Of a stretch of DNA of 64,000 nucleotides, positions 17,197 through 43,628 are shown piece after piece. The first letter of the stretch is position 1. Each line of letters opens with the position of its first letter. The translations under genes and the position numbers were made by a program. Source of the DNA: an uncultured Candidatus Poseidoniales archaeon (lineage in GTDB: Archaea > Thermoplasmatota > Poseidoniia > Poseidoniales > Poseidoniaceae); NCBI GenBank assembly GCA_902520595.1, contig CABYOM010000002.1, positions 434-64,433 on the forward strand, read 5' to 3'. The notes beneath the pieces were generated by a model that saw only the letters and a program-made list of their open reading frames with translations, was not told the DNA's origin and did no database searches.

Positions 17197-18441
17197 ATGG
17201 CAGTTGAGACCATCGTAACTTCGATAGCCTTAGTAGGGGGTTTTGTTGTTGGTTTATGGTATATTTTCACGCGTAAAGACGTGGCAATATCTGCCCGTCA
17301 AGGTTTGAATCCTGAAGGACTGCGATATGGCTCTGGCGCTCCGGGTTTTGGAAGTGCAAAGAAAGAAATCGATCGTAAACTTGCACTCGTTGAGAACCGT
17401 CGTCGTCGCCAGGAAGCAATTTCCAGCAGGATGGCGGCTGAAAATGCCGAAAGACTTGCACGTGAACAACTTCAACAATCTCGAGCCCAACAAGAAGCTG
17501 AACGGCTACAGATGATGGAAGATGCACGTATTGCAGCTCAAGAAGAAGCCCGCTTAGCCTCTGAAGCTGCCCAGAAAGTTCGTGACCAGCAAGATGAGGC
17601 TCGCCGACGTGAAGAAGAAGAAGCTCGCCTTGCAATTGAACGTGAGAATCAACGACAAGCAGACTTCTTGGCTTCTGAAGAATCCCGACTTGCTGAAATT
17701 GCTGCCGCTCAACAACAGCAGGTTGCTTCATCCACTTCGAATTCCAAAGCAATCAAAGAACTGCAAGCACGTTTAGCCCGTGAAGGAGCTAAATCTTCCG
17801 ATGTTCAAGTCTCTTTGATGTGGAATAATTACAATGATCTTGATCTACACATCGTTTGCCCTTCCGGTGAACGTATTCACGGAGGAAACAAAATCTCTGC
17901 ATGCGGTGGAGAACTCGATGTTGATGCCAATGTGCGTGCAGAGACCCGTAAACCGGTCGAGAACGTCTTTTGGCCTGAAGGAACTGCTCCGAGTGGCCAA
18001 TACCATGTTTATGTTCACTATTACAAGAAACACAAGAAGCGACGTTCAAAAGACCCGACGAAGTTCCAAATCATGCTCAATAACGGTGGAGAAACGACCG
18101 AATATTCTGCTGAACTCAGTAAGGGTGACCCGATCATGCAAGTTTGCTCTTTTGATGTCTCATCTAATGAAGAACGCGAACTCTTGAAGAGAGAACTTGA
18201 AACAGAATTGGATGCACTGAAAAACAGATTTATCGATGCAGATATTGATGGTAGTGCTCGACTCTCTGTTGAAGAACTGGCTGAGGCCACAGGTATGTCT
18301 CTTGAGGAAGCAGAAATTATTCACAAGAAGGCTGACAAAGACGGCGATGGCACAATCTCGCTTGATGAATACCTTTCAGCATCACAAGTTCCGAGTGCTC
18401 CTGACTTAGAATCACTGAGCACTGATGAATCCTCAGAATGA
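17197..18441 (+). CDS. membrane-anchored coiled-coil protein with PPC-like beta domain and a C-terminal EF-hand pair
   Basis: An N-terminal TM (IVTSIALVGGFVVGLWYIF) is followed by a roughly 150-aa E/R/Q/A-rich predicted coiled coil. A domain with NDLDLHIV (pre-peptidase-C-terminal-like) follows, and then EF-hand loops DADIDGSARLSVEE and the canonical DKDGDGTISLDE. Confidence 0.55.
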   Translation: MAVETIVTSIALVGGFVVGLWYIFTRKDVAISARQGLNPEGLRYGSGAPGFGSAKKEIDRKLALVENRRRRQEAISSRMAAENAERLAREQLQQSRAQQEAERLQMMEDARIAAQEEARLASEAAQKVRDQQDEARRREEEEARLAIERENQRQADFLASEESRLAEIAAAQQQQVASSTSNSKAIKELQARLAREGAKSSDVQVSLMWNNYNDLDLHIVCPSGERIHGGNKISACGGELDVDANVRAETRKPVENVFWPEGTAPSGQYHVYVHYYKKHKKRRSKDPTKFQIMLNNGGETTEYSAELSKGDPIMQVCSFDVSSNEERELLKRELETELDALKNRFIDADIDGSARLSVEELAEATGMSLEEAEIIHKKADKDGDGTISLDEYLSASQVPSAPDLESLSTDESSE

Positions 18442-29040: not shown

Positions 29041-29829
29041 ATGCAGTCGACTTCAGTTTACACCCGTGACCGCTGTATAACCGGCATTCATGGATTGGAT
29101 GAAATCCTTCGTGGAGGCATACCTCATGGTTCCACCGTGCTCGCTGCAGGAACCTGTGGATCTGGTAAGACAACCCTCGCCATGGAGTTTCTCGTTCGTG
29201 GAGCATTGGCAAAATTACCCGAATCATGCGCACACTTTACCGCTACCGAGCCTTCCATCAAATTACTTGAAAACATCCGTCAGTATGCTTTTTTCGATAT
29301 GAAAATGGTTGATTCTGGTAAAATCAACGTGTTTGACATGGACGTTTTGTATTCATGGCTCGGTTTAGACAAAGCATCTTTTGACCTTGATGATGTTCAC
29401 GCATTGATTAAAGCGATTATCAATATCGTTCATGAAATTGGAGCAACTCGCTTAGTGATTGACTCGGTCACGACCCTATGTTACAAGATTAAGTCTGAAC
29501 AATTAATCCGTGATTTCCTCTTCACGCTAGGAAAGAAATTGGCTTCGCTAGGATGTACAACCATCTTGATTTCGGAAATCACGTCAGCTACAGAGAATGC
29601 ACACTGGTCTTCCTTCGGTGTTGAAGAAGCAATTGCTGATGGCATTATTGTAATGGGGGATGTAGAGCGAATGGGCCACTTGTTGCGATTCCTCCAAGTG
29701 GTCAAGATGCGAGGAACTGCTCACAGCCGAGCCAAGCACGCCATTGAACTGACGCCATTAGGAGTCATGCTCACGCCAATGCTCAAGTGGGGCGCTCAGC
29801 ATGATAAAACCAACAAAGTAGGTGCTTGA
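29041..29829 (+). CDS. KaiC-like RecA-superfamily ATPase (single KaiC domain, intact P-loop)
   Basis: TGIHGLDEILRGGIPHGSTVLAAGTCGSGKTTLAMEF matches the KaiC/RadA-type GxPGLDe.LgGG.p.gs..l..G.pGtGKT signature. The Walker B-like segment is RLVIDSVTTL. Confidence 0.75.
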   Translation: MQSTSVYTRDRCITGIHGLDEILRGGIPHGSTVLAAGTCGSGKTTLAMEFLVRGALAKLPESCAHFTATEPSIKLLENIRQYAFFDMKMVDSGKINVFDMDVLYSWLGLDKASFDLDDVHALIKAIINIVHEIGATRLVIDSVTTLCYKIKSEQLIRDFLFTLGKKLASLGCTTILISEITSATENAHWSSFGVEEAIADGIIVMGDVERMGHLLRFLQVVKMRGTAHSRAKHAIELTPLGVMLTPMLKWGAQHDKTNKVGA

Positions 29830-29830
29830 C

Positions 29831-30436
29831 ATGTATTCAAACCTCACTCTTGATGACCGAATTGCTGAACAATTGGCAATCGATGTCAGCCTCAGCAGTG
29901 CGATTCAGGTTCGCTTTGGCAATTCGAATGCCTTCAATGTCACTGCCAGTACCTTGGTTCCTCTAATGAGGGACCATGAGATGGGTGGCGTTTACATCTG
30001 TGCAAGTGTAGGTGCTGCAGAACGGATTGAGGAATTCAAATCCATCGGACTTTCAGACGAATATATTTCTCGAATTCAGTTTATTGATTTGGTTTCTTCA
30101 GGTATTCTCGGCGGAACCGACGTAGAATATTCGAATATTCATTTCGTCGATAGCCCAATTATGCTTGAATCGGTACTTCTTCGCACCTTGTATATCCTAC
30201 GCATGACAACGTCCGTTCGTAATTTCGTATTCTTGGACAGCGTTAATGCATTGGCTATCTATAACGATGAGCGAATGCTTGCTGAATATCTTCACACGTT
30301 CATCAATACATTCCGTCAAAGAGAAGTTCTATCGGTCATTCTCAATGTTCCAGATCAGACTCCACCGTTGGTTCTTGCGAATCTTGACTTGTATTGCACG
30401 GACTTGATTGATAGAGGTCAAGTTTTGATTAATTGA
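29831..30436 (+). CDS. KaiC-like domain protein lacking a P-loop (degenerate paralogue)
   Basis: Its ATG lies 2 nt after the stop of the preceding KaiC-like gene, with AGGTG 9 nt upstream. It retains KaiC C-terminal-half features (VFLDSVNALAIY, Walker-B-like), but the region where the P-loop should be reads GGVYICASVGAAE. Confidence 0.45.
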   Translation: MYSNLTLDDRIAEQLAIDVSLSSAIQVRFGNSNAFNVTASTLVPLMRDHEMGGVYICASVGAAERIEEFKSIGLSDEYISRIQFIDLVSSGILGGTDVEYSNIHFVDSPIMLESVLLRTLYILRMTTSVRNFVFLDSVNALAIYNDERMLAEYLHTFINTFRQREVLSVILNVPDQTPPLVLANLDLYCTDLIDRGQVLIN

Positions 30437-30446
30437 GGTGTTCTAA

Positions 30447-31250
30447 ATGGCTCGTAAAATTGAATTTGACCCTGAAGATGAAGAGTTCTTCGGGAAAGTA
30501 GGCTCTTTCGGCGTTCCGAAATTCGATAATGAAATGCATGGAGGCGTTCCTCGTGGGTTCATGATGGTGGCTTTTACCGACACGGGTTCAGGAAGCGAAT
30601 TATTTGCCAAGCAATTCACTTCACCTGCCGAAGAGGCTGAAAACACATTATACATTTCTACGAATGAAGGCCAGCAAGAAATTATTCGCATTTTTCAGAA
30701 ATACAGTTGGCCTCTTGATATTAGCGTTCGAACGATTGGAGAAGAATACAACTCGACTGTGCTTGAACGAGAACTTCTCGCTAGCCGTTATCGACTCGAA
30801 GGTTTCCGCCTAGACGACATCCGTCGCCTCGCTCAAACTCGATTTGTAGACGATAATACTCAAGATTATTTGACAGAAGTCACCAACGAAGTAATGGCAC
30901 TCGGGCCTTACTTTAGAGCAGTCATCGACAGTCTGGATTTTTTCTTGCAACGTGAAGACCCTTCCCGTGTCGTCGCCATGGTTCGTATGCTCCAAGCACA
31001 TGCACAACTCAATCGAGGTCTTTTGCTTGTTTCAGTTTCTACCAACGGTCTTGACCCTATTGTTAAGCAAGAATTAGCATCTATTGCAGACATGGTTCTT
31101 TCATTCCAGGTCCGAACTATAGGTACTGATTTTGAAACTTCTATGATCGTTTCGAAATTCCGTAACGCTCCTGAAAATTTGAAAATCCTCGTCTTCCGAG
31201 TTACTCCTGAAGAAGGAATCACACCAGAAACCGTCGAACGTATCGCTTGA
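30447..31250 (+). CDS. KaiC-like pseudo-ATPase (P-loop Lys lost)
   Basis: GVPKFDNEMHGGVPRGFMMVAFTDTGSGSELFAKQF aligns with the KaiC N-terminal signature, but GTGKT is replaced by GSGSE. The Walker-B-like segment RAVIDSLDFF is retained. The Shine-Dalgarno sequence is AGGTG. Confidence 0.55.
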   Translation: MARKIEFDPEDEEFFGKVGSFGVPKFDNEMHGGVPRGFMMVAFTDTGSGSELFAKQFTSPAEEAENTLYISTNEGQQEIIRIFQKYSWPLDISVRTIGEEYNSTVLERELLASRYRLEGFRLDDIRRLAQTRFVDDNTQDYLTEVTNEVMALGPYFRAVIDSLDFFLQREDPSRVVAMVRMLQAHAQLNRGLLLVSVSTNGLDPIVKQELASIADMVLSFQVRTIGTDFETSMIVSKFRNAPENLKILVFRVTPEEGITPETVERIA

Positions 31251-31337
31251 TACGCTTGTTGCGAGTGCGAGGATGCGCCTAATATAGCGATGAAATTTTG
31301 GCGACATATCCAAAGAGGTCGGGTGTGACGAAGCCTC

Positions 31338-32087
31338 ATGGGCGACCGAGCAGCAACTGGCGGTTACGACCCTTCAGGTATCGATATCGATGCGTGGGAG
31401 AAACTGGAGTTGCAACTTGAAGAAACGATTCCGAACTACGACCGCGTAAATCGTTTGATGACTTTTGGCCAGGATAAGCGTTGGCGACGAAACGTTCGAA
31501 ACCACGCTACTCCTGGAATGAAAGTTCTTGAAGTTGGCTGCGGTCCTGGTTCATTTGCCGAAGACCTTGTGGGATTGGACGTCACCTGCCTTGATCCTTC
31601 CTCAGAGATGTTGAAGGTAGCGAAAAAGCGAGTTGATGCTGCGCGAGCCAGTCGTGGTGAGCAACCAGCACATTACATCGAGGCCATTGCCGAATCAATA
31701 CCCTGTGAAGAGAATACTTTTGACATGGTTTTCTGTCTTTTTTCATTCCGTGATTTTCAAGATAAGAGAAAAGGATTGACCGAGATTCTGCGCGTTCTAA
31801 AACCCGGTGGCCGACTGGTAATTTGTGATGCAGGAAAAGCGAATTGGTTTCACGGTCTTGGTGGGCGAATTTGGATGGCAACGGCCGTTCAATGGATTGC
31901 ACGCTACGTCACCAAAGAGAAGAACCACCCGTGGAAAGGCCTTGCCAATACGTATACTCAGTATGGGACAAATGGGTATTATCGAAAGATGATGAAAGAA
32001 GTCGGATTTGATGATGTTCAAGGGCGACTTTTGATGCCTTTTATGATGTCAAGTCGGTTCAGAGGCACCAAGCCAAAAAAGAAGTAA
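31338..32087 (+). CDS. class I SAM-dependent methyltransferase, UbiE/MenG-like
   Basis: YDRVNRLMTFGQDKRWRRNV resembles the UbiE N-terminal block. Motif I is VLEVGCGPGSF, and motif post-I is LDVTCLD. Confidence 0.65.
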   Translation: MGDRAATGGYDPSGIDIDAWEKLELQLEETIPNYDRVNRLMTFGQDKRWRRNVRNHATPGMKVLEVGCGPGSFAEDLVGLDVTCLDPSSEMLKVAKKRVDAARASRGEQPAHYIEAIAESIPCEENTFDMVFCLFSFRDFQDKRKGLTEILRVLKPGGRLVICDAGKANWFHGLGGRIWMATAVQWIARYVTKEKNHPWKGLANTYTQYGTNGYYRKMMKEVGFDDVQGRLLMPFMMSSRFRGTKPKKK

Positions 32088-32181: not shown

Positions 32182-32493
32182 ATGAAAGATGTCCTCCGAA
32201 AAATCAAAGAAGCCGAGCAGTCTGCTGAAAAGCGACTTTCCTCTGCTCAAACAGAATCCGGAAAAATTACTGCAGATGCTCGAAAAGAGGCTGCAGCACT
32301 TGTAAGCGGCGCTACAGAAGAATCAGTTGCTGAGACACAAGCTACGCTTGATGCCGCACGCACAAAAGCCGGTAAAGAGGCGGACGCTGTTCTCAAAGAA
32401 GGTGCTTCTGAGATCGAATCAATAGAATCATCTGCATCCAGTCGAAAAGAAAAGGCAGTCAAGAATTTACTTGACGCAGTATCATCACAGTGA
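32182..32493 (+). CDS. atpH: A-type ATP synthase subunit H
   Basis: 104-aa alanine/lysine/glutamate-rich helical protein (MKDVLRKIKEAEQSAEKRL...) at the first position of the canonical ahaHIKECFABD order. Confidence 0.7.
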   Translation: MKDVLRKIKEAEQSAEKRLSSAQTESGKITADARKEAAALVSGATEESVAETQATLDAARTKAGKEADAVLKEGASEIESIESSASSRKEKAVKNLLDAVSSQ

Positions 32494-32503
32494 GGTGTTT
32501 TCC

Positions 32504-34849
32504 ATGTTTGCTACTTCTGAGATGTCCCGTCTTACAGTAGCAGGCTCTGTCGAAAAAATGGAAGAAGTTCTTCGACTATGCACCGAACTTTCCTGCGTCC
32601 ACATTCAAGAATACGGACGATTTGAAGACGGAATTAACGTCGGCAAATCAATGGATTCTGATGAGGCAAATGCAATCAGTAACTTGCTTGTTAAAGTTCA
32701 AGCAGTTTCTTCTTCGGTTCTAGCAGTCAACACTGATGGTGCTATGTCGCACGCCGAAGTTTCAAAACTCGTTGAAGGATTTGAAGAAAAAATAACCACT
32801 GCTCTGTCCTACATCGATACTATCCGTGATGCAGAGTCAACAATTTCCTCCTCCCAAGAACAACATCATGTCCTCAGCCGACTCGCACCTCTCGACCTCC
32901 CTCTTGAACTGATGAGCGGATACGGTGGTGTCGAAGTATTCGTTGGAGAAACTCGAAGAGCCTCGAAAGCAAACGAAGTCTTCTCTGAAATCCGCTCGGA
33001 AATCGAACTTCACGCTGCTGGAGGTCTAATTGCAGTTGCATGCCGCCCTGAGCACTCTGCTGAAGTTCAAATCGGCATGGCAGAACTTGGCTCAAAGCCT
33101 GTTCAAATCCCTGCTGGAGAAGGCTCACCCGCTGAAAAAGCAGAAGCACTGTCTCAAGAAATTACTCGCTTGGAATCAAAGATTGCCGAAACCCAGGATG
33201 ATCTTGACGCCTGGGCAGTTGAACACGGCCGAAATTTAGTTGCAGTCGAGGAATATCTCGTTCGCGAGGCAGCAATTTTTACTGCTCCAACATTAATGGC
33301 AGTGAGTAACCAGGCATTCGCATTGGATGGTTGGGTTCCTACCGACCAAGCAGATGCGGTCCAATCTCGATTGTCAAAGGTCGCCTCTCACGTTAGCATC
33401 GAAGCCTACGAAGGTGGACATCACCATCATGAAGAGCATGCAGACGATGGTCATTCTGACCCTGAAGAACTGGTTATGCTTTCCAACTATCTTCATAAAT
33501 CGAATCAATCGATTTTCCAGTTTTTCAAAGCAATCGATTTGGATGATTCAGGCCTCATTGACTGTTACGAATTCCAAAAGGCACTCAAGAACGCAGACAT
33601 TGCCAATCTCCCTCCATGGGAAATGGGTAAACTCGTTTCCGCAGTCGATCTCGACGGCGATGGTAAGATCAACCTTCCCGAACTTGACATTTCGCTTACT
33701 CGAATTCGTAATGCTCCTTCACACGACGATCATCCCGAGCCAGAGCCTCCGATTCAATACACGAACGGGTCTACCTCTGAACCGTTTGAACTGATGGTTG
33801 ACTTGGTTGGCCGTCCAAAATACGGAACTTTCGATCCGACCATGCTCATGATGATGACATTCCCATTCATCTACGGCATGATTTTGGGAGACTGGGGCTA
33901 CGGTATCGTCCTCTTGCTTTTGGCAGGATGGCTTGGTAGCAAAGCCTTCGCTGTTGACCCGATGGCCCAAAAAGGACTTACTATCCTGCGATGGATGGGC
34001 GTTTGGTGTATCATCTGGGGTATTGTTTTCGCTGAAGGATTTGGCTTTGTATGGGATAATACCGGTCAAATGGGTACTGATTCACCGTTCAACGGTTTTT
34101 ATGAATGGACATATGCAAACGTCCATGTCCCTGAAGTTCTGGCTGACTTACTGAATCTTGGAGGCCTTCACATGCCTTTCCACCGAGCATCTGCTGGACA
34201 CGGACTACAGGAATATGTTGTTCTCTCTGTTTACCTCGGAGCCATCCACATCTTCTTGGGCTACATTCTCGGCTTGGTCAATGTATTCAGAGCACATGGC
34301 GCAGCAGCAGCATACTTCGAAAAAGGCTCTTGGATTCTCATTCTCATAGGTGGATTTATGCAGTGCAGAAACATGGTCTCAGGCTACAATGATTTGTTTG
34401 AATTCCAAATTTGGACGGTCCTGCTTATCGTTGGTATAATCAGTCTCATAATCGGATTGGCCATCTTTGAAAAGTTTGGCTGGGCTGGAGGTCTCATCAT
34501 GGGTCCAATCGAAACTTTCGGACTGCTTGCGAACACTCTCTCCTACCTACGTATCATGGCCGTTGGCGTTGCCGGTGTCAAGATTGCAGAAGTATCCATC
34601 ACTATGGGCTTCGAGCCAATGATGGACGCTTTCACCAGCGGAGAAGCCACAGGTATTCTTGTTGGCTTGCTCTGCTTGGTTCTGTTCCTCTTCATCCAAG
34701 TCTTCGCAATCGCTTTGGGAATCCTTTCCCCTACAATTCACGCAGCCCGTCTCCACTTTGTGGAATGGATGGGCAAATTCTACGACGGGTCTGGCAGTGC
34801 ATTTGCACCGCTTGGTGGCCGTAATCTCCATGTGGAGAGTAAATCATAG
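32504..34849 (+). CDS. atpI: A-type ATP synthase subunit I (a-subunit) with EF-hand/His-rich insertion
   Basis: Start MFATSEMSRLTVAG, 10 nt after the atpH stop, with GAGGTG upstream. The conserved block PKYGTFDPTMLMMMTFPFIYGMILGDWGYG and the C-terminal TM helices are present. An extra segment of roughly 130 aa (nt about 33400-33790) contains GGHHHHEEHADDGH and two EF-hand loops. Confidence 0.85.
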   Translation: MFATSEMSRLTVAGSVEKMEEVLRLCTELSCVHIQEYGRFEDGINVGKSMDSDEANAISNLLVKVQAVSSSVLAVNTDGAMSHAEVSKLVEGFEEKITTALSYIDTIRDAESTISSSQEQHHVLSRLAPLDLPLELMSGYGGVEVFVGETRRASKANEVFSEIRSEIELHAAGGLIAVACRPEHSAEVQIGMAELGSKPVQIPAGEGSPAEKAEALSQEITRLESKIAETQDDLDAWAVEHGRNLVAVEEYLVREAAIFTAPTLMAVSNQAFALDGWVPTDQADAVQSRLSKVASHVSIEAYEGGHHHHEEHADDGHSDPEELVMLSNYLHKSNQSIFQFFKAIDLDDSGLIDCYEFQKALKNADIANLPPWEMGKLVSAVDLDGDGKINLPELDISLTRIRNAPSHDDHPEPEPPIQYTNGSTSEPFELMVDLVGRPKYGTFDPTMLMMMTFPFIYGMILGDWGYGIVLLLLAGWLGSKAFAVDPMAQKGLTILRWMGVWCIIWGIVFAEGFGFVWDNTGQMGTDSPFNGFYEWTYANVHVPEVLADLLNLGGLHMPFHRASAGHGLQEYVVLSVYLGAIHIFLGYILGLVNVFRAHGAAAAYFEKGSWILILIGGFMQCRNMVSGYNDLFEFQIWTVLLIVGIISLIIGLAIFEKFGWAGGLIMGPIETFGLLANTLSYLRIMAVGVAGVKIAEVSITMGFEPMMDAFTSGEATGILVGLLCLVLFLFIQVFAIALGILSPTIHAARLHFVEWMGKFYDGSGSAFAPLGGRNLHVESKS

Positions 34850-34879: not shown

Positions 34880-35191
34880 ATGAACGTAAATACCCTAAAA
34901 ATGAGCCTAAGAACACTGATCCTATTGGCAGCCATTACCATGGTTGCTCAAGGGGTCGCAGCAGCCGAAGCAGACGAACTATCGCAATCAGATGGTTCCG
35001 GATATGCAGCAATCGGTGCTGGAATTGCCCTGGGACTTGCAGCAATTGGTGCAGGTCTTTCTCAAGCAGCCATTGGCAGCGCAGCTGTCGGTATGCTTGC
35101 TGAAGACGGAAGCAAATTCGGTGTTGCACTCATTTTCACTGCGTTGCCAGAATCAATTGTGATTCTCGGTGCTTTGCCACTTTTCCTCTGA
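34880..35191 (+). CDS. atpK: A-type ATP synthase subunit K (proteolipid c-subunit, single hairpin) with N-terminal extension
   Basis: GGAGGT Shine-Dalgarno sequence. Gly/Ala-rich helix 1 (AIGAGIALGLAAIGAGLSQAAIGSAAVG). Helix 2 carries the conserved carboxylate in LPESIVILGALPLFL. A presequence of about 35 aa precedes the hairpin. Confidence 0.8.
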   Translation: MNVNTLKMSLRTLILLAAITMVAQGVAAAEADELSQSDGSGYAAIGAGIALGLAAIGAGLSQAAIGSAAVGMLAEDGSKFGVALIFTALPESIVILGALPLFL

Positions 35192-35255: not shown

Positions 35256-35819
35256 ATGACGCTTGAAACACTCGCAAAAGATATCGCAAAATCCGCTGAG
35301 GCAGAGGCCTCTGCAATGCTCAAATCCGCCAAGGAAGATGCAAAGGCAATTCTTGCTGATGCAAAATCAAAGGCAGATGGCATTCGCTCGGAAGCATCGG
35401 CTCGCACTGAACGAGAGGCAAATCAAATTGCCCGTGAAGTTGTGGCCAGTGCTCGCCAAGCGAACCAAAAAGAAATTCTCGTTGCTCGACGAAAGGTTCT
35501 CGATGAGACCCTTGAATCTGCGAGCAGTGAACTTGGTAGCCCGAAACTGTCAGGAAGAGCAAGTCTGCTCAAGTCCCTGATGGCGAAAGCTGACAAGATT
35601 GGTGGCAATGATTACTCGATTCGACCAGTCGAACTTGACCGAAAAGCACTTTCTGAATTAGCCGGAAAGCGCAAGGTTGGTGAAGCAATAGACGGCCTTG
35701 GTGGTTTTGTTCTTGAATCACCAGATGGTTCAGTTTCTTACGACATGCGCTTTGACACACTGCTTGAAAGTTCTTGGAATGCACAACTCGCTGAAATTAA
35801 TTCAATACTTTTTGACTGA
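35256..35819 (+). CDS. atpE: A-type ATP synthase subunit E
   Basis: The A/K/E-rich helical N-terminus and globular C-terminus are typical of subunit E. Its position follows K. Confidence 0.75.
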   Translation: MTLETLAKDIAKSAEAEASAMLKSAKEDAKAILADAKSKADGIRSEASARTEREANQIAREVVASARQANQKEILVARRKVLDETLESASSELGSPKLSGRASLLKSLMAKADKIGGNDYSIRPVELDRKALSELAGKRKVGEAIDGLGGFVLESPDGSVSYDMRFDTLLESSWNAQLAEINSILFD

Positions 35820-35825
35820 GGGATA

Positions 35826-36869
35826 ATGATGGTAATGCTTGGAAACACACCTTACGTTGCTGCCCGTGCCAAAGCACGTCGGCAGAAACTTGCGGACCGT
35901 GCTAGGCTACGCCAACTGATTAACCAATCACCTGAACAACTGACCGTTGCGGTCGGTGAAATTGGGTACCGCTCAGAGATTGACATCTATGCGGGCCAGT
36001 TAACCGGTGGAGATTTGGTCGAAGCAGCATTAACCCACAACTTGGAACACGAACTCGAGAACATGCTCTCAATGTGCAACGGAAAAATCCGTAAAATCGT
36101 TGAAACATACACTTCTCGATTCGAGTATTACAATGCTAAAGTGGTTCTACGGGCTGTTGTCAATGAAGTCGACCTCGAGAAGGTATCTCATTCGATTCTT
36201 CCTGAACTGAATGATATCAATACCCCTTGGTTGAAGATCATCGAAAGTGCTGACGATTTGCGCTCTGCTGTCGTTCAGATGCGTCGCAAGTCGTTCGGCC
36301 CTGCTCTTGTTGCAGTTTCCGAAGACGCTCGCCTTTCTGATTATGAAGACGCTCTTGATGTCCATTATTTCAAGAGCGCTTTGGATTCACTGAAAGGTAA
36401 GGGAGCAGATATTCGTTTCCTGAAAGATCTTCTCGGTGCTGAAATTGACCATCGTAACCTCTTGAACATTCTCGAGGCTGAAGCGGTGGGTATTTCTTTT
36501 GATGAAATTGTATCTATGCTTGTCCCTGGCGGACGTATCCTACCTGCTCGTGCTTTCTCTTCGATTGCTGCAGGTGGCAAAGATGCCGCTATGGACCTCT
36601 TGCGTGGCTCAAGCCGTTTTGATTTCCCTGCGTTTGAAGGTGCACTTTCCGCATCAAAAGAGATGAACAGCCTTGACCCTGTTGTGACATGGTTCAAGGA
36701 ACGAGAACATGCTATTATGAAGCGAATGAGCTTCCTCCATCCAGTATCAGCACTACCGGTTGTTCACTATGTGGCCATGAAGGTCCAAGAAGTGAACGAT
36801 CTCCGCTTTATCGTTCGTGGGCGGCTTGCTGGATTGTCTGTTGAAGTGCTTGAAGCGCATATTTTGTGA
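35826..36869 (+). CDS. atpC: A-type ATP synthase subunit C
   Basis: About 345-aa helical protein between E and F. The N-terminus NTPYVAARAKARRQKL is typical of subunit C (d-subunit homologue). Confidence 0.75.
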   Translation: MMVMLGNTPYVAARAKARRQKLADRARLRQLINQSPEQLTVAVGEIGYRSEIDIYAGQLTGGDLVEAALTHNLEHELENMLSMCNGKIRKIVETYTSRFEYYNAKVVLRAVVNEVDLEKVSHSILPELNDINTPWLKIIESADDLRSAVVQMRRKSFGPALVAVSEDARLSDYEDALDVHYFKSALDSLKGKGADIRFLKDLLGAEIDHRNLLNILEAEAVGISFDEIVSMLVPGGRILPARAFSSIAAGGKDAAMDLLRGSSRFDFPAFEGALSASKEMNSLDPVVTWFKEREHAIMKRMSFLHPVSALPVVHYVAMKVQEVNDLRFIVRGRLAGLSVEVLEAHIL

Positions 36870-36880
36870 GGTGAAGAAGT

Positions 36881-37180
36881 ATGGACATAGCAGTTGTTGG
36901 AACTCCAGAATTCACCCTTGGATTCCAACTTGCAGGTATTGATAATCTGCATAACCCAGAAGGCGAAGACGCAACCGTCTCGACCTTCAAAAAACTACTC
37001 AACAATAAGAGCGTAGGGATTGTCGTGGTTGACTCCTCAATCCTAACTACGCTGCCAGAGCGTCTTCGTGACCAACTCTCGGCATCCGTCTCTCCGACCG
37101 TGCTTGGCATTGGAACGGAAGAAGACACTACCTTACGAGACACAATTCGTAAGGCTATAGGAGTCGACCTGTGGAAGTAA
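36881..37180 (+). CDS. atpF: A-type ATP synthase subunit F
   Basis: 99-aa protein ([20 protein letters not shown]...) with the conserved subunit-F fold signature. Its position lies between C and A. Confidence 0.75.
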
Positions 37181-37208
37181 TGTTCCAAACTATATGGAGG
37201 AAATAAAA

Positions 37209-38948
37209 ATGAGCAATGAAGGAGTAATTTACCGAATATCGGGACCTGTTGTAACCGCAACTGGCATGAAAGCTGCAATGTATGACGTGGTTCGTGTTGG
37301 TGACGAAGGTTTGATGGGCGAAGTAATTGAACTGCACGGCGATAAAGCCGTTATCCAAGTGTACGAAGATACCTCTGGTATTCGTCCTGGTGAACCAGTA
37401 TTGAATACCCAAGAAACGTTATCCGTCTCTTTAGGCCCAGGTCTCTTGACTCAAATTTACGATGGAATTCAGCGCCCTCTTCCAACTTTGGAAGAAGAAA
37501 TGGGCGTTTTCATTACTCGAGGTGTTGATGCAGATGCTTTCGACCTCGAAAAGATTTGGACGTTCGAGCCTCAAGTCGCTGTAGGCGATTCTGTGGTTGG
37601 CGGTCAAGTCATCGGTCACGTTCAAGAAACTGAAACAATCATTCACAAAATCATGGTACCTCCTACCGTCACTGGTGTTGTGAAATCGATTGAATCAGGT
37701 GATTACAACGTCACACAAACCGTGTGTGTTCTTGAAGACGGCACTGAGATGCAAATGATGCAGAAGTGGCCTGTTCGAACACCTCGTCCATTCCAGCAAA
37801 AGTATGCTCCGGATACTCCACTGATTACCGGTATGCGAATTCTGGATTTCTTGTTCCCACTTGCTAAGGGTGGAGCAGCAGGTATCCCTGGTCCTTTTGG
37901 TTCAGGAAAAACTGTTACTCAACAATCTCTCGCAAAGTATTCTGACGCTCAGCTGGTTGTCTATATCGGATGCGGAGAACGTGGAAACGAGATGACTGAA
38001 GTGTTGGACGAATTCCCTCACTTGATTGATCCAAACACCGGTAAGCCTTTGATGAACAGAACCGTCATGATTGCGAACACCTCCAACATGCCTGTTGCAG
38101 CACGTGAAGCATCTGTATATACTGGAATTACCATTGCAGAATACTTCCGTGATATGGGCTATGATGTCGCATTGATGGCAGACTCAACCTCTCGTTGGGC
38201 TGAAGCAATGCGTGAAATCTCCTCTCGTCTGGAAGAAATGCCAGGTGAAGAAGGATATCCTGCTTACTTGTCTTCTCGAATTGCTGAGTTCTATGAACGT
38301 GCTGGCCGTGTTGAAACCCTCAGTGGCGAAGACGGTTCAGTCACAGTCATTGGTGCAGTTTCACCTCCTGGTGGAGACATTTCCGAACCGGTTTCCCAAG
38401 GAACACTTCGTATTGTCAAGGTTTTCTGGGGACTGGATGCAGGTCTTGCCCGACAACGTCACTTCCCAGCGATTAACTGGCTAAACTCGTATTCCTTATA
38501 TCCGCAAAGTCTCGACCAGTGGTTCCGCGACAACATCGCTCAAGATTTCCCAGAAATTCGAACACAAGTCAGCGGTCTACTTCAAGTTGAAGCTGAATTG
38601 CAAGAAATCGTTCAATTGGTTGGTTCTGACGCACTTCCTGTTGACCAACAGTTGACTCTTGAAGTTGCTCGAATGATTCGAGAGTTCTTTTTGCAACAGA
38701 ACGGATTCCACGATGTTGATGCTTACTGTGACATCCACTTGCAATATCAAATGGCAAAGGCAATCCTTTCCTTCCAAGAATCTGCAAAGTCTGCTATGGC
38801 TGGCGGTGCACAACTCAATGATGTCGTCAACGTACCATCTCGTTCAGACCTTATGCGTGGTCGTTTCGAAAAGGGATACATCGACATCATCAACGACATG
38901 GTCAAGAAAATGACCGATGAAATCGCCGATACGGTGGAGGATAACTAA
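37209..38948 (+). CDS. atpA: A-type ATP synthase catalytic subunit A
   Basis: GGAGG lies 8 nt upstream of the ATG. The P-loop is [12 protein letters not shown]. The insertion characteristic of A subunits (the non-homologous region) is present. About 580 aa. Confidence 0.9.
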
Positions 38949-38961
38949 GGAGAGGAATATC

Positions 38962-40376: not shown

Positions 40377-40994
40377 ATGGCACTCGACATCAAACCAACC
40401 CGCAGTGAGTTGATTAAACTCAAGGGACGGATTAAGCAAACCAAAAACGGTTACAAGTTGCTTAAGATGAAGCGAGACGGTTTGTTTCACGAGTTCCGAA
40501 CACTTCTTTCCGACATGATTGCTGCAAAGCGTGACCTCACCGATACGTACCGTATGGCTAAACAGCGAATTGACCTTGCAAATGCGATTGAAGGAGGATT
40601 GGCTGTCCGTGCTGCTGCGATTGCAAACACCGGTCATCCAGAAGTTGAAGTTGAACGCCGAAACATCATGGGTGTCGTTGTTCCAAGTGTGAGTGGGACC
40701 AATTTGAAATCCACCTTTGAAGAGCGAGGCGTCGGATACATTGGTTCATCACCGTATATCGATGAAGCTGGAGAATCATTTGGTAACTTGATTGAAAAGA
40801 TTGTCAAAGCCTCGGAAATGGAAGCTACGCTCAAGCGTCTCCTTCAAGAAATCGAGGCGACCAAGCGACGTGTCAATGCTTTGGAGTTCAAGGTAATCCC
40901 TGAACTTGAAGAAGCACGAGTCTTCATTCAACTCCGTCTTGAAGAAATGGAACGAGAAGAAACGTTCCGTCTCAAGCGTTTCAAGAACAAGTGA
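40377..40994 (+). CDS. atpD: A-type ATP synthase subunit D (central stalk)
   Basis: GAGGAGGTGA Shine-Dalgarno sequence. The N-terminus MALDIKPTRSELIKLKGRIKQTKNGYKLLK is the subunit-D signature coiled coil. Confidence 0.85.
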   Translation: MALDIKPTRSELIKLKGRIKQTKNGYKLLKMKRDGLFHEFRTLLSDMIAAKRDLTDTYRMAKQRIDLANAIEGGLAVRAAAIANTGHPEVEVERRNIMGVVVPSVSGTNLKSTFEERGVGYIGSSPYIDEAGESFGNLIEKIVKASEMEATLKRLLQEIEATKRRVNALEFKVIPELEEARVFIQLRLEEMEREETFRLKRFKNK

Positions 40995-41069: not shown

Positions 41070-43628
41070 ATGCCTGACAACTTTGATGACTCTTTGGCTG
41101 AAGATTCTCCTCAAGAATCGATGCCTGCTCATCGTTCAGAATGGAAGCAACAGGATTTGCTAGCATCAATACTGAGTCGCTTTTTTTATCTCTCAAACAA
41201 CATGTCGGGAGGAATTCTTCCGGCATGGGCGGTATCACCTAAAGACGACAAGGAAATCGACGATTGTCTCGATGAAGCGAACGCCCACCTCAAGAAACTC
41301 GGTTGGGCTGCAAAATTATCCCAAAACGAAGGTTGGATAGTCCAACTGTTCCCTCTTCCTGAACGACAATTCCCATCACGGAATGTCACGCTGATGATGT
41401 GGACTTTTTCGGCACTAACCCTCACACTTGCAGGCGCTTATTGGATGGATGGTTCACGTCCATCTGGTGGCTGGTTTTCAGATTCTACCTTTACAGATTC
41501 TGTACTTGGATACACGCTTCCAGTTCTTGGAAGCCTTTTTGTTGCTTCACACATTCAAAAGAGGGTTGCTTCTCACTTCAATCACCGTGTTGGACACATT
41601 ACTCCAATACCTGAACCAACCATCTCTCTGTGGAGTTTGGGTTTACTTTCCCAAGCCTCTTTGGTTTGGCCATTTGGTCTCTTCCTCATACCGACCTTGC
41701 CTCGCATGGATGCTCGATTATGGGACGATCGCAAAGTCTTGGGATGGGTTGCTGTATCTGTCCCTGCCACATTGATAACTCTCGGTATGCTGTTGTGGGG
41801 ACTCGGGTTATGGCTTACCCCCGAATATGTTGCGGTTACTGGTTCGCAAAATGTGGCTCAAGCCCCCTTCTTAATCGAAATTTTAGGTCAATGGCAAATC
41901 GACGGTTATCTCAACCGGTTAATTTGGTCTCATCCATTTGTCAAAGCCGGTGCCCTGTTGACTTTTTTTGGTTGGATATCTCTTCTTCCGATACCAACCT
42001 TCCCTGGCGGCCGAATAATGATTGCTCGTGCTGGTCCATCTGAAGCCCGAAGCAGCAATAATCAAATTTTCATATTCCTCCTCATACTTGCTTTCGCCTG
42101 GATGTTTGATGCCTTCAATGGCTTTACAATTTGGATTTTTGTCCTGACATTAATTTTGCCTTTATTGCTTTTCATGGGTACGGACAGAAGTTCCCCACTT
42201 ATTCTCAACGAACCGAAGGGGCTCGACTTACCGGCGATGAAAAATATCGGATTTGTCATGCTTATCGCGGTATTATTCGCTTTACCAAGTCAGGTTCCAT
42301 TCCAAATTGATACAGAATGGAATTCTGAAGCTGAATATGATATTGATACGAATTATACTGCACTACAGATAGACGGTCAGTGGAATGCTTTGGTCTCAGT
42401 TCACGTGATGAACCCCTCTTCAGTCAACCGTGATTGGGCAGTTGACTTTGACAACCATAATCCGCATTTAGACGCTTGGGAGAGTTCGTGGGACTGTGAT
42501 GGTGAAGATTCACTCAATGTCAACGGAGGAGGTTGTGGAAGCACCTTACCGCCTCATACGCACACGACTGTCGTCCTTAACCTCACATGGAGCGAACAAT
42601 CGTTCGAACCTACGACGTTAGATTTTTCTTTGATTTCTCTCACTGAAGGTGAATATGATAGCCATGCTATTTCCATTCGCCCTGACCTTCCAGTTCATCC
42701 TGAAACTCCTTGGCAGATGTATTTTGATGAAGGCGAAATGAAACGGTGCATGGACCTTCAATCGTCTACGGATGATGTTCTGAATGTTACTTTCCCGAAT
42801 GCTGGACAAGTTTCCAATCTTCAATCTCGATTGCAGTGGATTGAAGGGTATAGCAACCTCTCGGCTAGTTTCGAACAGACTCCAGATCGCCTTTGTATAC
42901 GTGGTTTAGACCCTGTTGTATTGCGCACTTCTGAATTGGATCATGTTCAACTCAACAACTATACTTTCGATGGTGGTTTGCCTGAACTACCTTTAGTCGC
43001 TGTTGTTCCAGAAACTGGATGGAATATTACCAGTGACCCATCGCTAGGTTGGGGATTTATGCTCAATTCAAGTGGTCTTTTGAGTTCAATTGACGATCTG
43101 TGCCCACTTAACCCGTCCCTCTCAATACCTCCTTCCCCTTCAGAGGGTCAGTGGATTTGGGACCTCGATGTTCGAAAGATTTCCAATATCCCTGCTGTGG
43201 ACAACGCAAATGAATCACTCGTCGTTCAAATGTCAGACGACTCGAGTATGCATGTGTGCTCACCCGAACTTTCTGTTGAGCCGAAATTCAATTTCACTGT
43301 TGAGCAAGGTCCTGAACTGATTTTCCAACGCTACAACACCTCTCATCGAATCTGGTCGAACATGTGGATGGCCGCCCACAATGACTCCCTCATACAACCC
43401 GGAGGCGCCACATTTTCGGTCTATAGTTCAAGCAACGTATCGGTTCCTGTACAGTTGAACTATCAAGGAAATGGAGAGCAATGGACAACAGTTCTCTCAA
43501 CCAATACACTGCAATTTGGATGGAACTCATTTGAATTTGAACCATCGACGAGTAATTCTACTCTTTCGACGCTTTGGTTTGATCACCAAGATGGGGCCCT
43601 TGTCATCCATCTGTCAAGTTATGTATGA
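41070..43628 (+). CDS. polytopic membrane protein with site-2-protease (M50)-like transmembrane core lacking catalytic motifs, fused to about 450-aa N-glycosylated C-terminal ectodomain
   Basis: The C-terminal TM block GWISLLPIPTFPGGRIMIARAG...IFIFLLILAFAWMFDAF parallels the RseP/S2P NLLPIPVLDGGHLL...LFNDF region, but LDG is replaced by FPG. The N-terminal region where HExxH is expected reads VASHIQKRVASHFNHRVGH. The ectodomain is rich in N-x-S/T sequons. Confidence 0.5.
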   Translation: MPDNFDDSLAEDSPQESMPAHRSEWKQQDLLASILSRFFYLSNNMSGGILPAWAVSPKDDKEIDDCLDEANAHLKKLGWAAKLSQNEGWIVQLFPLPERQFPSRNVTLMMWTFSALTLTLAGAYWMDGSRPSGGWFSDSTFTDSVLGYTLPVLGSLFVASHIQKRVASHFNHRVGHITPIPEPTISLWSLGLLSQASLVWPFGLFLIPTLPRMDARLWDDRKVLGWVAVSVPATLITLGMLLWGLGLWLTPEYVAVTGSQNVAQAPFLIEILGQWQIDGYLNRLIWSHPFVKAGALLTFFGWISLLPIPTFPGGRIMIARAGPSEARSSNNQIFIFLLILAFAWMFDAFNGFTIWIFVLTLILPLLLFMGTDRSSPLILNEPKGLDLPAMKNIGFVMLIAVLFALPSQVPFQIDTEWNSEAEYDIDTNYTALQIDGQWNALVSVHVMNPSSVNRDWAVDFDNHNPHLDAWESSWDCDGEDSLNVNGGGCGSTLPPHTHTTVVLNLTWSEQSFEPTTLDFSLISLTEGEYDSHAISIRPDLPVHPETPWQMYFDEGEMKRCMDLQSSTDDVLNVTFPNAGQVSNLQSRLQWIEGYSNLSASFEQTPDRLCIRGLDPVVLRTSELDHVQLNNYTFDGGLPELPLVAVVPETGWNITSDPSLGWGFMLNSSGLLSSIDDLCPLNPSLSIPPSPSEGQWIWDLDVRKISNIPAVDNANESLVVQMSDDSSMHVCSPELSVEPKFNFTVEQGPELIFQRYNTSHRIWSNMWMAAHNDSLIQPGGATFSVYSSSNVSVPVQLNYQGNGEQWTTVLSTNTLQFGWNSFEFEPSTSNSTLSTLWFDHQDGALVIHLSSYV

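Follow-up and report, generated by a model that had tools for sequence, protein, structure and literature searches.

The window analyzed in this study, i.e., the whole stretch of 64,000 nucleotides (nt) taken from contig CABYOM010000002.1 of an uncultured Candidatus Poseidoniales archaeon, contains a complete A-type ATP synthase operon with the gene order H-I-K-E-C-F-A-B-D, all on the plus strand, as assigned with Pfam. The second gene, atpI, encodes subunit I, the a-subunit of the stator, and carries an EF-hand pair between its soluble and its membrane domain. The identity of the gene follows from the V_ATPase_I profile (PF01496), which scores 104.8 bits on the whole protein (cut-off 30.7, E-value 4.5e-30), and from the best NCBIfam matches, which are V-type ATP synthase subunit I models (E-value 2.5e-114, under the equivalog cut-offs). 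The matches in the PDB are NtpI of Enterococcus hirae and subunit I of Thermus thermophilus. The longest open reading frame (ORF) opens with a TTG codon at 32471. An ATG codon at 32504 yields a protein starting with MFATSEMSRLTV, which is the N-terminus common to the homologues, and the protein is therefore taken as 781 amino acids (aa) long. The coordinates of all features are given in Table 1.

Residues 321–402 of the atpI product form a canonical EF-hand pair. The module consists, in this order, of a leading helix (residues 321–332, with the motif ELxMLxxYL), the first EF-hand, a linker with an invariant PP dipeptide and the second EF-hand. Both 12-residue loops, DLDDSGLIDCYE and DLDGDGKINLPE, have oxygen ligands at positions 1, 3, 5, and 12, a glycine at position 6 and a hydrophobic residue at position 8. 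A preliminary description of this locus, made from the sequence, had reported the ORF and its peptide strings, all of which are present as described, and had expected EF-hand profiles to recognize both loops. On the whole protein, the Pfam scores indeed exceed the curated cut-offs, with 36.4 bits for EF-hand_7 (PF13499; gathering score 30), 30.6 bits for EF-hand_1 (25.4) and 27.6 bits for EF-hand_6 (25), and the EF-hand scores rise when an excised segment of 130 residues is used. A phmmer search with the 90-residue core against all PDB sequences retrieved radial spoke protein 7 (RSP7), calmodulin and centrin with E-values of 9e-12 to 1e-9, the alignment to the calmodulin C-lobe spanning both loops. 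Dockerin type I was considered as another identity and rejected, since the Dockerin_1 profile reaches 17.0 bits (cut-off 22.9) and matches a single loop only.

When the strict loop pattern was applied to all six frames of the 64-kb window, its only match besides the two atpI loops was a single loop of a further protein, which Pfam also assigns to the EF-hand proteins. Chance is no explanation for the pattern in atpI. The second EF-hand protein (17197–18441, plus strand, 414 aa) has an N-terminal hydrophobic helix, a long coiled-coil-like stretch rich in Glu, Arg, and Gln, a weak match to DUF2135 and a C-terminal EF-hand pair (EF-hand_7, 35.9 bits; loop DKDGDGTISLDE), which is not a close relative of the atpI module.

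A search of 5.8 billion proteins yielded 622 relatives, the best 120 of which (clusters at 90% identity) were examined. They share 60–100% identity with the query, have a length of 770–802 aa and originate from independent NCBI, ENA, JGI, TARA, and Logan assemblies, and all of them carry precomputed EF-hand Pfam domains. In the first loop D1, D3, S5, G6, and E12 are invariant in all 120 homologues, with D or E at position 9 and L, I, or V at position 8, while the non-liganding positions 4, 7, 10, and 11 are free to vary. In the second loop the same invariance holds for D1, D5, G6, N9, and E12, with D or N at position 3 and I or L at position 8. The leading helix is conserved to a similar degree, with four invariant residues (E322, L323, L326, and L330) and one, Y329, that is kept in at least 90% of the sequences, and the PP dipeptide of the linker between the EF-hands is likewise conserved. 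Because the liganding residues are invariant and position 12 is a glutamate, both loops are very likely to bind Ca2+.

The ratio of non-synonymous to synonymous substitution rates (dN/dS), calculated with the Nei-Gojobori method across 13 orthologues, is 0.062 for the EF-hand module, 0.092 for the soluble N-terminal domain and 0.045 for the membrane domain. The module is thus under strong purifying selection and constrained like the catalytically essential parts of subunit I. For the two linkers that flank it, dN/dS amounts to 0.23 (linker 1) and 0.26 (linker 2), i.e., they evolve about four times as fast as the module. The GC content at third codon positions is 0.44 both in the module and in the gene, and this common base composition points to an old and fully assimilated insertion and not to a recent import. 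The preliminary description had named a chimeric assembly as the alternative to a genuine fusion. This alternative, or an annotation artefact, is excluded for practical purposes, as the same architecture recurs across independent assemblies (in all 120 listed clusters at 90% identity and in 18 metagenome-assembled genomes of GTDB, see below), the reading frame is intact and under purifying selection, and the composition is not atypical; we found no evidence in favor of such an origin and its probability is close to nil.

Among the GTDB species representatives, the gene was found in 24 metagenome-assembled genomes (MAGs) labelled Poseidoniaceae, Poseidoniales or ‘Euryarchaeota’ (Marine Group II, MGII). 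The EF-bearing architecture is present in 18 GTDB species-representative MAGs, and five others (L019–L023) encode an orthologue of 680–687 aa without the module, which is 71–73% identical to atpI in the best-aligned segment. Two of these insert-less orthologues (L019 and L021) were translated, and V_ATPase_I is the sole Pfam match of the latter. Their flanks are the same as in the window, with a KaiC-like gene, a methyltransferase gene and atpH upstream and atpK-E-C-F-A-B downstream. The alignment shows a clean insertion that the insert-less relatives lack, in agreement with the lineage-specific insertion, shared by orthologues in related MAGs, that had been proposed earlier. The excess length had been estimated at 110–130 aa. 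It amounts to about 100–130 aa relative to typical relatives, close to that estimate, but to only about 95–100 aa relative to the closest insert-less orthologues, whose length is 682–687 aa.

Scanning all of 1.84 billion representatives of 50%-identity clusters with HMMER yielded 6017 hits, the best 150 of which were inspected. EF-hand loops occur in only two of these 150, the representative of the query's own cluster (P0077) and a fragment (P0134). The other full-length relatives in this set are mostly 600–760 aa long and are matched in at least two stretches, with the insert left unmatched. In a neighbour-joining tree calculated with the insert masked, all 40 EF-bearing sequences fall in one clade with L019–L023 as sister group, and the insert-less sequences lie outside. 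The EF clade has a bootstrap value of 86%, and the group that it forms with its sister one of 100%. As the carriers form one clade, the most parsimonious history, and the most likely one from the sequences, is a single gain of the module on the stem of this clade within the Poseidoniaceae (Marine Group IIa). With regard to its source, a hidden Markov model of the module matched only subunit I in six-frame translations of the window and the 24 loci, to which this search was limited, no database-wide search having been made.

The module lies within a linker rich in His and acidic residues. The His-rich string GGHHHHEEHADDGHSDPEE corresponds to residues 304–322, and His-rich remnants are found on either side of the module (HHHHEEHADDGH ... 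SHDDHPEPE). In the preliminary description, the His tract and the EF-hand pair were regarded as one insertion. We reject the tract as a part of the insertion, as it is also found in the insert-less sister clade and in many distant relatives: the orthologues L019 and L021 keep a His/acidic linker that reads ...HVEDHHHHDEEDGHHQVNPPIALDNG... and ...HVDDHHHAEDEGHHHSSPPIALDNG..., respectively, and linkers rich in His, Asp, and Glu occur at the same position in many more distant subunit I proteins without EF-hand (P0121–P0233). At least five His residues within 70 residues upstream of the PxYxxxDP anchor were counted in about 20 of 127 representatives. By this comparison, the His/acidic linker is the ancestral, widespread element, and the EF-hand module was inserted into its middle.

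The His residues raise the possibility of a site for another divalent metal (Zn2+, Ni2+) or for pH, in which the linkers and the EF-hand loops would act together, for example to buffer metal or, as a patch near the cytoplasmic half-channel, to collect protons. Such a site would account for the His tracts on both sides of the module, for the conservation of H306 (invariant) and of H307, H309, and H312 (at least 90%), and for the recurrence of His-rich linkers in many related subunit I proteins. The His linker, however, is older than the module and exists without it, so that the gain of the EF-hands is left unexplained; moreover, the linkers evolve about four times faster than the module. Canonical EF-hand loops with all-oxygen ligands also prefer Ca2+ to transition metals. 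We therefore consider a transition-metal or pH site distinctly improbable.

The fold was modelled in two AlphaFold runs, one of the full-length protein with 34 homologues and one of residues 296–436 with 25 homologues. Both runs agree on the leading helix 321–332 and on helices 337–343, 354–363, 374–381, and 391–402, with short strands (351–353 and 388–390) bridging the two EF-hand loops. The predicted local distance difference test score (pLDDT) is 75–89 in the module. The pair of helix-loop-helix units that had been anticipated is thus predicted in both models. All 50 hits listed by Foldseek for the local model against the PDB are EF-hand proteins or complexes containing them, the top match being the EF1-EF2 pair of ACF7 (probability 1.0, root-mean-square deviation 2.8–2.9 Å over 78 columns). 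The E-values of Foldseek are modest, as expected, because the domain is small and its tails are disordered.

In the soluble N-terminal domain, AlphaFold predicts a proximal lobe to which both ends of the domain contribute, with a long helical hairpin and a distal lobe between them and residues 296–301 as the last strand. Residues 408–515 of atpI align with residues 329–435 of E. hirae NtpI, and residues 407–526 with residues 309–441 of T. thermophilus subunit I, both of which mark the very start of the membrane domain. Together with the position of the last soluble strand, these alignments place the module where the proximal lobe of the cytoplasmic arm gives way to the membrane domain. The flanking linkers (303–317 and 405–427) have a pLDDT below 50 and are predicted to be disordered, so that the predicted attachment of the module at the stator hinge is a flexible one, via linkers of about 15–20 residues each. 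In A/V-ATPases, the junction between the soluble and the membrane part is exposed to the cytoplasm, where the surface of the c-ring, the base of the central stalk and the foot of one peripheral stalk are its neighbors. The module is accordingly inferred to be cytoplasmic and close to the c-ring surface, to subunit C at the central-stalk base and to the foot of one peripheral stalk. The preliminary description had placed the module in the collar domain. It identified roughly the right region, although the hinge lies outside the collar, and AlphaFold predicts a flexible tether instead of the packing against the collar that had been envisaged. The full-length model, with a predicted template modelling score (pTM) of 0.34, is too uncertain to place the module relative to the arm or the membrane domain.

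Flexible tethers on either side, as predicted here, would make a poor rigid brace, which is one argument against reading the pair as a structural calcium site, i.e., one that is permanently occupied by Ca2+ or Mg2+ and only serves to stiffen or space the junction of arm and membrane domain, without any signaling. Ligand conservation and low dN/dS are as compatible with such a site as with a sensor, a structural role is common among prokaryotic EF-hand domains, and no target was identified for the module. Nevertheless, the sister-clade orthologues and the other relatives examined build the enzyme without it, and Ca2+-selective sites that react to changing Ca2+ typically have a glutamate at position 12, as both loops do. 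A purely structural role thus seems unlikely, while being the most serious competitor of a sensor function.

Apart from the insertion, the enzyme is intact as judged from its genes, with a complete operon and with R683 of the LSYLRIM motif unchanged in 34 homologues. This residue corresponds to the Arg that subunit I/a proteins keep in the long tilted membrane helix facing the c-ring. The segment LSYLRIMAVG aligns with VSYTRLMALG of E. hirae NtpI, Arg on Arg, and the conserved PKYGTFDPT segment begins at residue 438.

Table 1. Features of atpI and genes of the A-type ATP synthase operon in the window.
Feature	Description	Coordinates	Strand	Evidence
atpI	A-type ATP synthase subunit I (stator a-subunit), 781 aa with inserted EF-hand pair	32504..34849	+	Pfam V_ATPase_I
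Soluble N-terminal domain	aa 1–303	32504..33412	+	AlphaFold secondary structure
His/acidic linker 1	aa 304–320, GGHHHHEEHADDGHSDP	33413..33463	+	pLDDT <50; His tracts in relatives
Inserted EF-hand module	aa 321–402	33464..33709	+	Pfam EF-hand_7, PDB phmmer, AlphaFold, Foldseek
EF-hand loop 1	aa 345–356, DLDDSGLIDCYE	33536..33571	+	Loop pattern; conservation in 120/120 homologues
EF-hand loop 2	aa 382–393, DLDGDGKINLPE	33647..33682	+	Loop pattern; conservation in 120/120 homologues
Linker 2	aa 403–414, RNAPSHDDHPEPE, 3' half of the split His/acidic linker	33710..33745	+	pLDDT <50
Membrane domain	aa 415–781, from PPIQYTNG...RPKYGTFDPT, with Arg683 in LSYLRIM	33746..34846	+	PDB alignment
atpH	Peripheral-stalk subunit, G-like	32182..32493	+	V-ATPase_G (E-value 3.5e-5, below gathering score); operon position
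atpK	c subunit, single hairpin	34880..35191	+	Pfam ATP-synt_C
atpE		35256–35819	+	Pfam vATP-synt_E
atpC		35826–36869	+	Pfam vATP-synt_AC39
atpF		36881–37180	+	Pfam ATP-synt_F
atpA		37194–38948	+	Pfam ATP-synt_ab
atpB		end 40341	+	Pfam ATP-synt_ab
atpD		40377–40994	+	Pfam ATP-synt_D

The longest ORF of atpB (474 aa) shares 32 nt with the end of atpA (38917–38958, plus strand). The matches to orthologous B subunits are 459–460 aa long, and the true start of atpB therefore probably lies about 15 codons downstream. Directly 3' of atpD, an ORF of 852 aa (41070–43628, plus strand) has no Pfam match at an E-value of 0.001 or below. The region 5' of atpH (29822–32087, plus strand) encodes a protein of 204 aa, a KaiC-like ATPase (267 aa) and a methyltransferase of the UbiE/COQ5 type (249 aa). 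In the insert-less locus L021 (3206–5542), ORFs of 200, 270, and 247 aa precede atpH, matching the window in size and order.

The c subunit encoded by atpK carries a Q ... LPESIVI ion-site motif. Its best PDB match is subunit K of T. thermophilus (E-value 2.4e-16), which has Q ... LPETLVI at the same aligned positions. A Gln in helix 1 with Glu-Ser/Thr in helix 2 is the combination looked for in a Na+-binding c-ring. The T. thermophilus enzyme, with Q and E-T at these positions, is H+-coupled, so that the combination of Q and E-S does not decide the coupling ion. The preliminary description had pointed to the Q and E-S residues and had questioned the coupling ion. They are present, but they are not new, as an ‘LPESxxI’ motif was reported for the c subunit of MGIIa and read there as possible Na+ coupling (PMC6336850). 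At its N-terminus, the product of atpK is also extended by about 38 aa, which include a signal-like hydrophobic stretch; the precursor of T. thermophilus subunit K shares this extension.

The neighborhood of the operon also bears on the possibility that the EF-hand pair is a docking module, which recruits another protein or links complexes in the way of calmodulin-like light chains or dockerins. An amphipathic leading helix (E322, L323, L326, Y329, L330) conserved like the loops would suit such a role, and long flexible tethers would allow the module to reach its partners. A second EF-hand protein is encoded in the window, and calcium-binding domains have been reported in families specific to the Poseidoniales (PMC9258230). 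The operon, however, has no candidate partner gene linked to it, the insert-less genomes have the same flanks, and the dockerin profile stays under its cut-off (17 versus 22.9 bits). A docking module is therefore, in our judgment, rather improbable.

We propose instead, as a speculative but favored reading, that the module is a Ca2+ sensor of the ATP synthase. An EF-hand pair of about 85 residues, comparable to one calmodulin lobe, was most likely inserted once in the existing His/acidic linker of subunit I, in the ancestor of a large Poseidoniaceae clade. Binding of Ca2+ to both loops would open a hydrophobic cleft, or would free or capture the leading helix 321–332, and the altered module would dock on, or leave, a nearby surface of the stator or the rotor. 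Candidate surfaces are the proximal lobe, subunit C, the loops of the c-ring, the feet of the stalks and the module's own leading helix. Synthesis or hydrolysis of ATP by the A1AO enzyme would thereby become responsive to cytoplasmic Ca2+, one possibility being a brake on wasteful ATP hydrolysis upon a leak of Ca2+ from seawater. That Ca2+ binding shifts the conformation of the module, so that it docks on or releases a neighboring surface and modulates rotation or coupling, is a proposition we see as nearly, if not quite, evenly balanced. The architecture suggests that the cells of this Poseidoniaceae clade couple their main energy enzyme to cytoplasmic calcium. The most far-reaching version, namely that a dominant clade of surface-ocean archaea possesses a rotary ATPase with a built-in Ca2+ sensor, the first of its kind, in which Ca2+ switches ATP synthesis or hydrolysis via the module at the stator hinge, is possible, if somewhat doubtful.

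Several observations count against the sensor proposal. Neither the AlphaFold models nor the comparison of partner subunits identified a docking target, and no confident contact of the module with the rest of subunit I was predicted (full-length pTM 0.34). In the H, E, C, and F subunits, no indel sets one clade apart, their lengths being identical in the carrier and sister clades, and the diagnostic substitutions in these subunits (7–13%) follow the overall divergence of each subunit. EF-hand pairs may also serve a purely structural role. The host organisms are uncultured, the fold, insertion site, phyletic pattern, and selection being known from sequences and models. Finally, the phylogeny is distance-based (neighbour-joining) with 86% support at the key node, and independent fusions may exist elsewhere, beyond the best 150 of the 6017 hits.

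In a literature search that combined EF-hand with Marine Group II, Poseidoniales or A1AO ATP synthase, we found no description of this fusion, as the preliminary description had presumed. The EF-bearing architecture is visible in precomputed Pfam annotations, yet apparently it has not been described. The two main MGII genome papers (one of them PMC6336850) mention neither EF-hand nor calcium, nor does ATP synthase appear in a survey on the prokaryotic origins of Ca2+ signalling proteins. The atpI product is a standard A-type subunit I to which a well-known sensor domain has been added at a point of mechanistic sensitivity. Little is understood of how archaea avoid wasteful ATP hydrolysis, the evidence for archaeal Ca2+ signalling is thin, and we know of no A-type ATP synthase with a known dedicated regulatory domain. 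The module described here is confined to one clade, is strongly selected and lies at a hinge whose movement regulates the related eukaryotic V-ATPases. Its hosts belong to the archaea that are most abundant in the surface ocean. It offers a testable handle both on the regulation of A1AO enzymes and on archaeal Ca2+ sensing, with the insert-less orthologue of the sister clade, which differs mainly by the module, as a natural control. Should the module be a Ca2+ sensor, Ca2+ would act as a second messenger with direct control over the core bioenergetics of an archaeon; should it be purely structural, it would be a tidy example of domain insertion with limited wider interest.

The closest systems with a solved structure are E. 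hirae NtpI (8wci) and T. thermophilus subunit I (5gar, 6qum), which belong to the same Pfam family and share the operon context, the soluble hairpin N-terminal domain and the C-terminal membrane domain with its essential Arg. In these proteins, the soluble part runs straight into the membrane domain, whereas atpI adds about 100 residues at this point, which make up the EF-hand pair and linkers. The insert-less subunit I of other Poseidoniaceae (L019–L023) is closer still, with the same flanks and the same kind of His/acidic linker, but the EF-hand module is missing. The N-terminal domain of the eukaryotic V-ATPase a-subunit, i.e., the same subunit and region as the site of the atpI module, is a regulatory hub, and the movement of its arm relative to the membrane part controls activity. 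V-ATPases are, however, regulated by reversible disassembly, lipids, and partner proteins and not by a built-in Ca2+-binding domain, and A-type ATP synthases are not known to disassemble.

With respect to the module itself, the calmodulin C-lobe, centrin and other two-EF-hand lobes resemble it in sequence, in their canonical loops and in the predicted fold. Unlike free calmodulin, the atpI module is a single lobe placed in the linker of a membrane protein and has an extra conserved leading helix. Fused EF-hands that confer a response to Ca2+ are found in the SCaMC/APC and aralar/citrin carriers and in the external NAD(P)H dehydrogenases of plants and fungi. These hosts are eukaryotic and unrelated to atpI, and their modules are N-terminal or otherwise placed. 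In SCaMC, the EF-hand domain captures an internal amphipathic helix, a mechanism that may find a parallel in the leading helix 321–332 of atpI.

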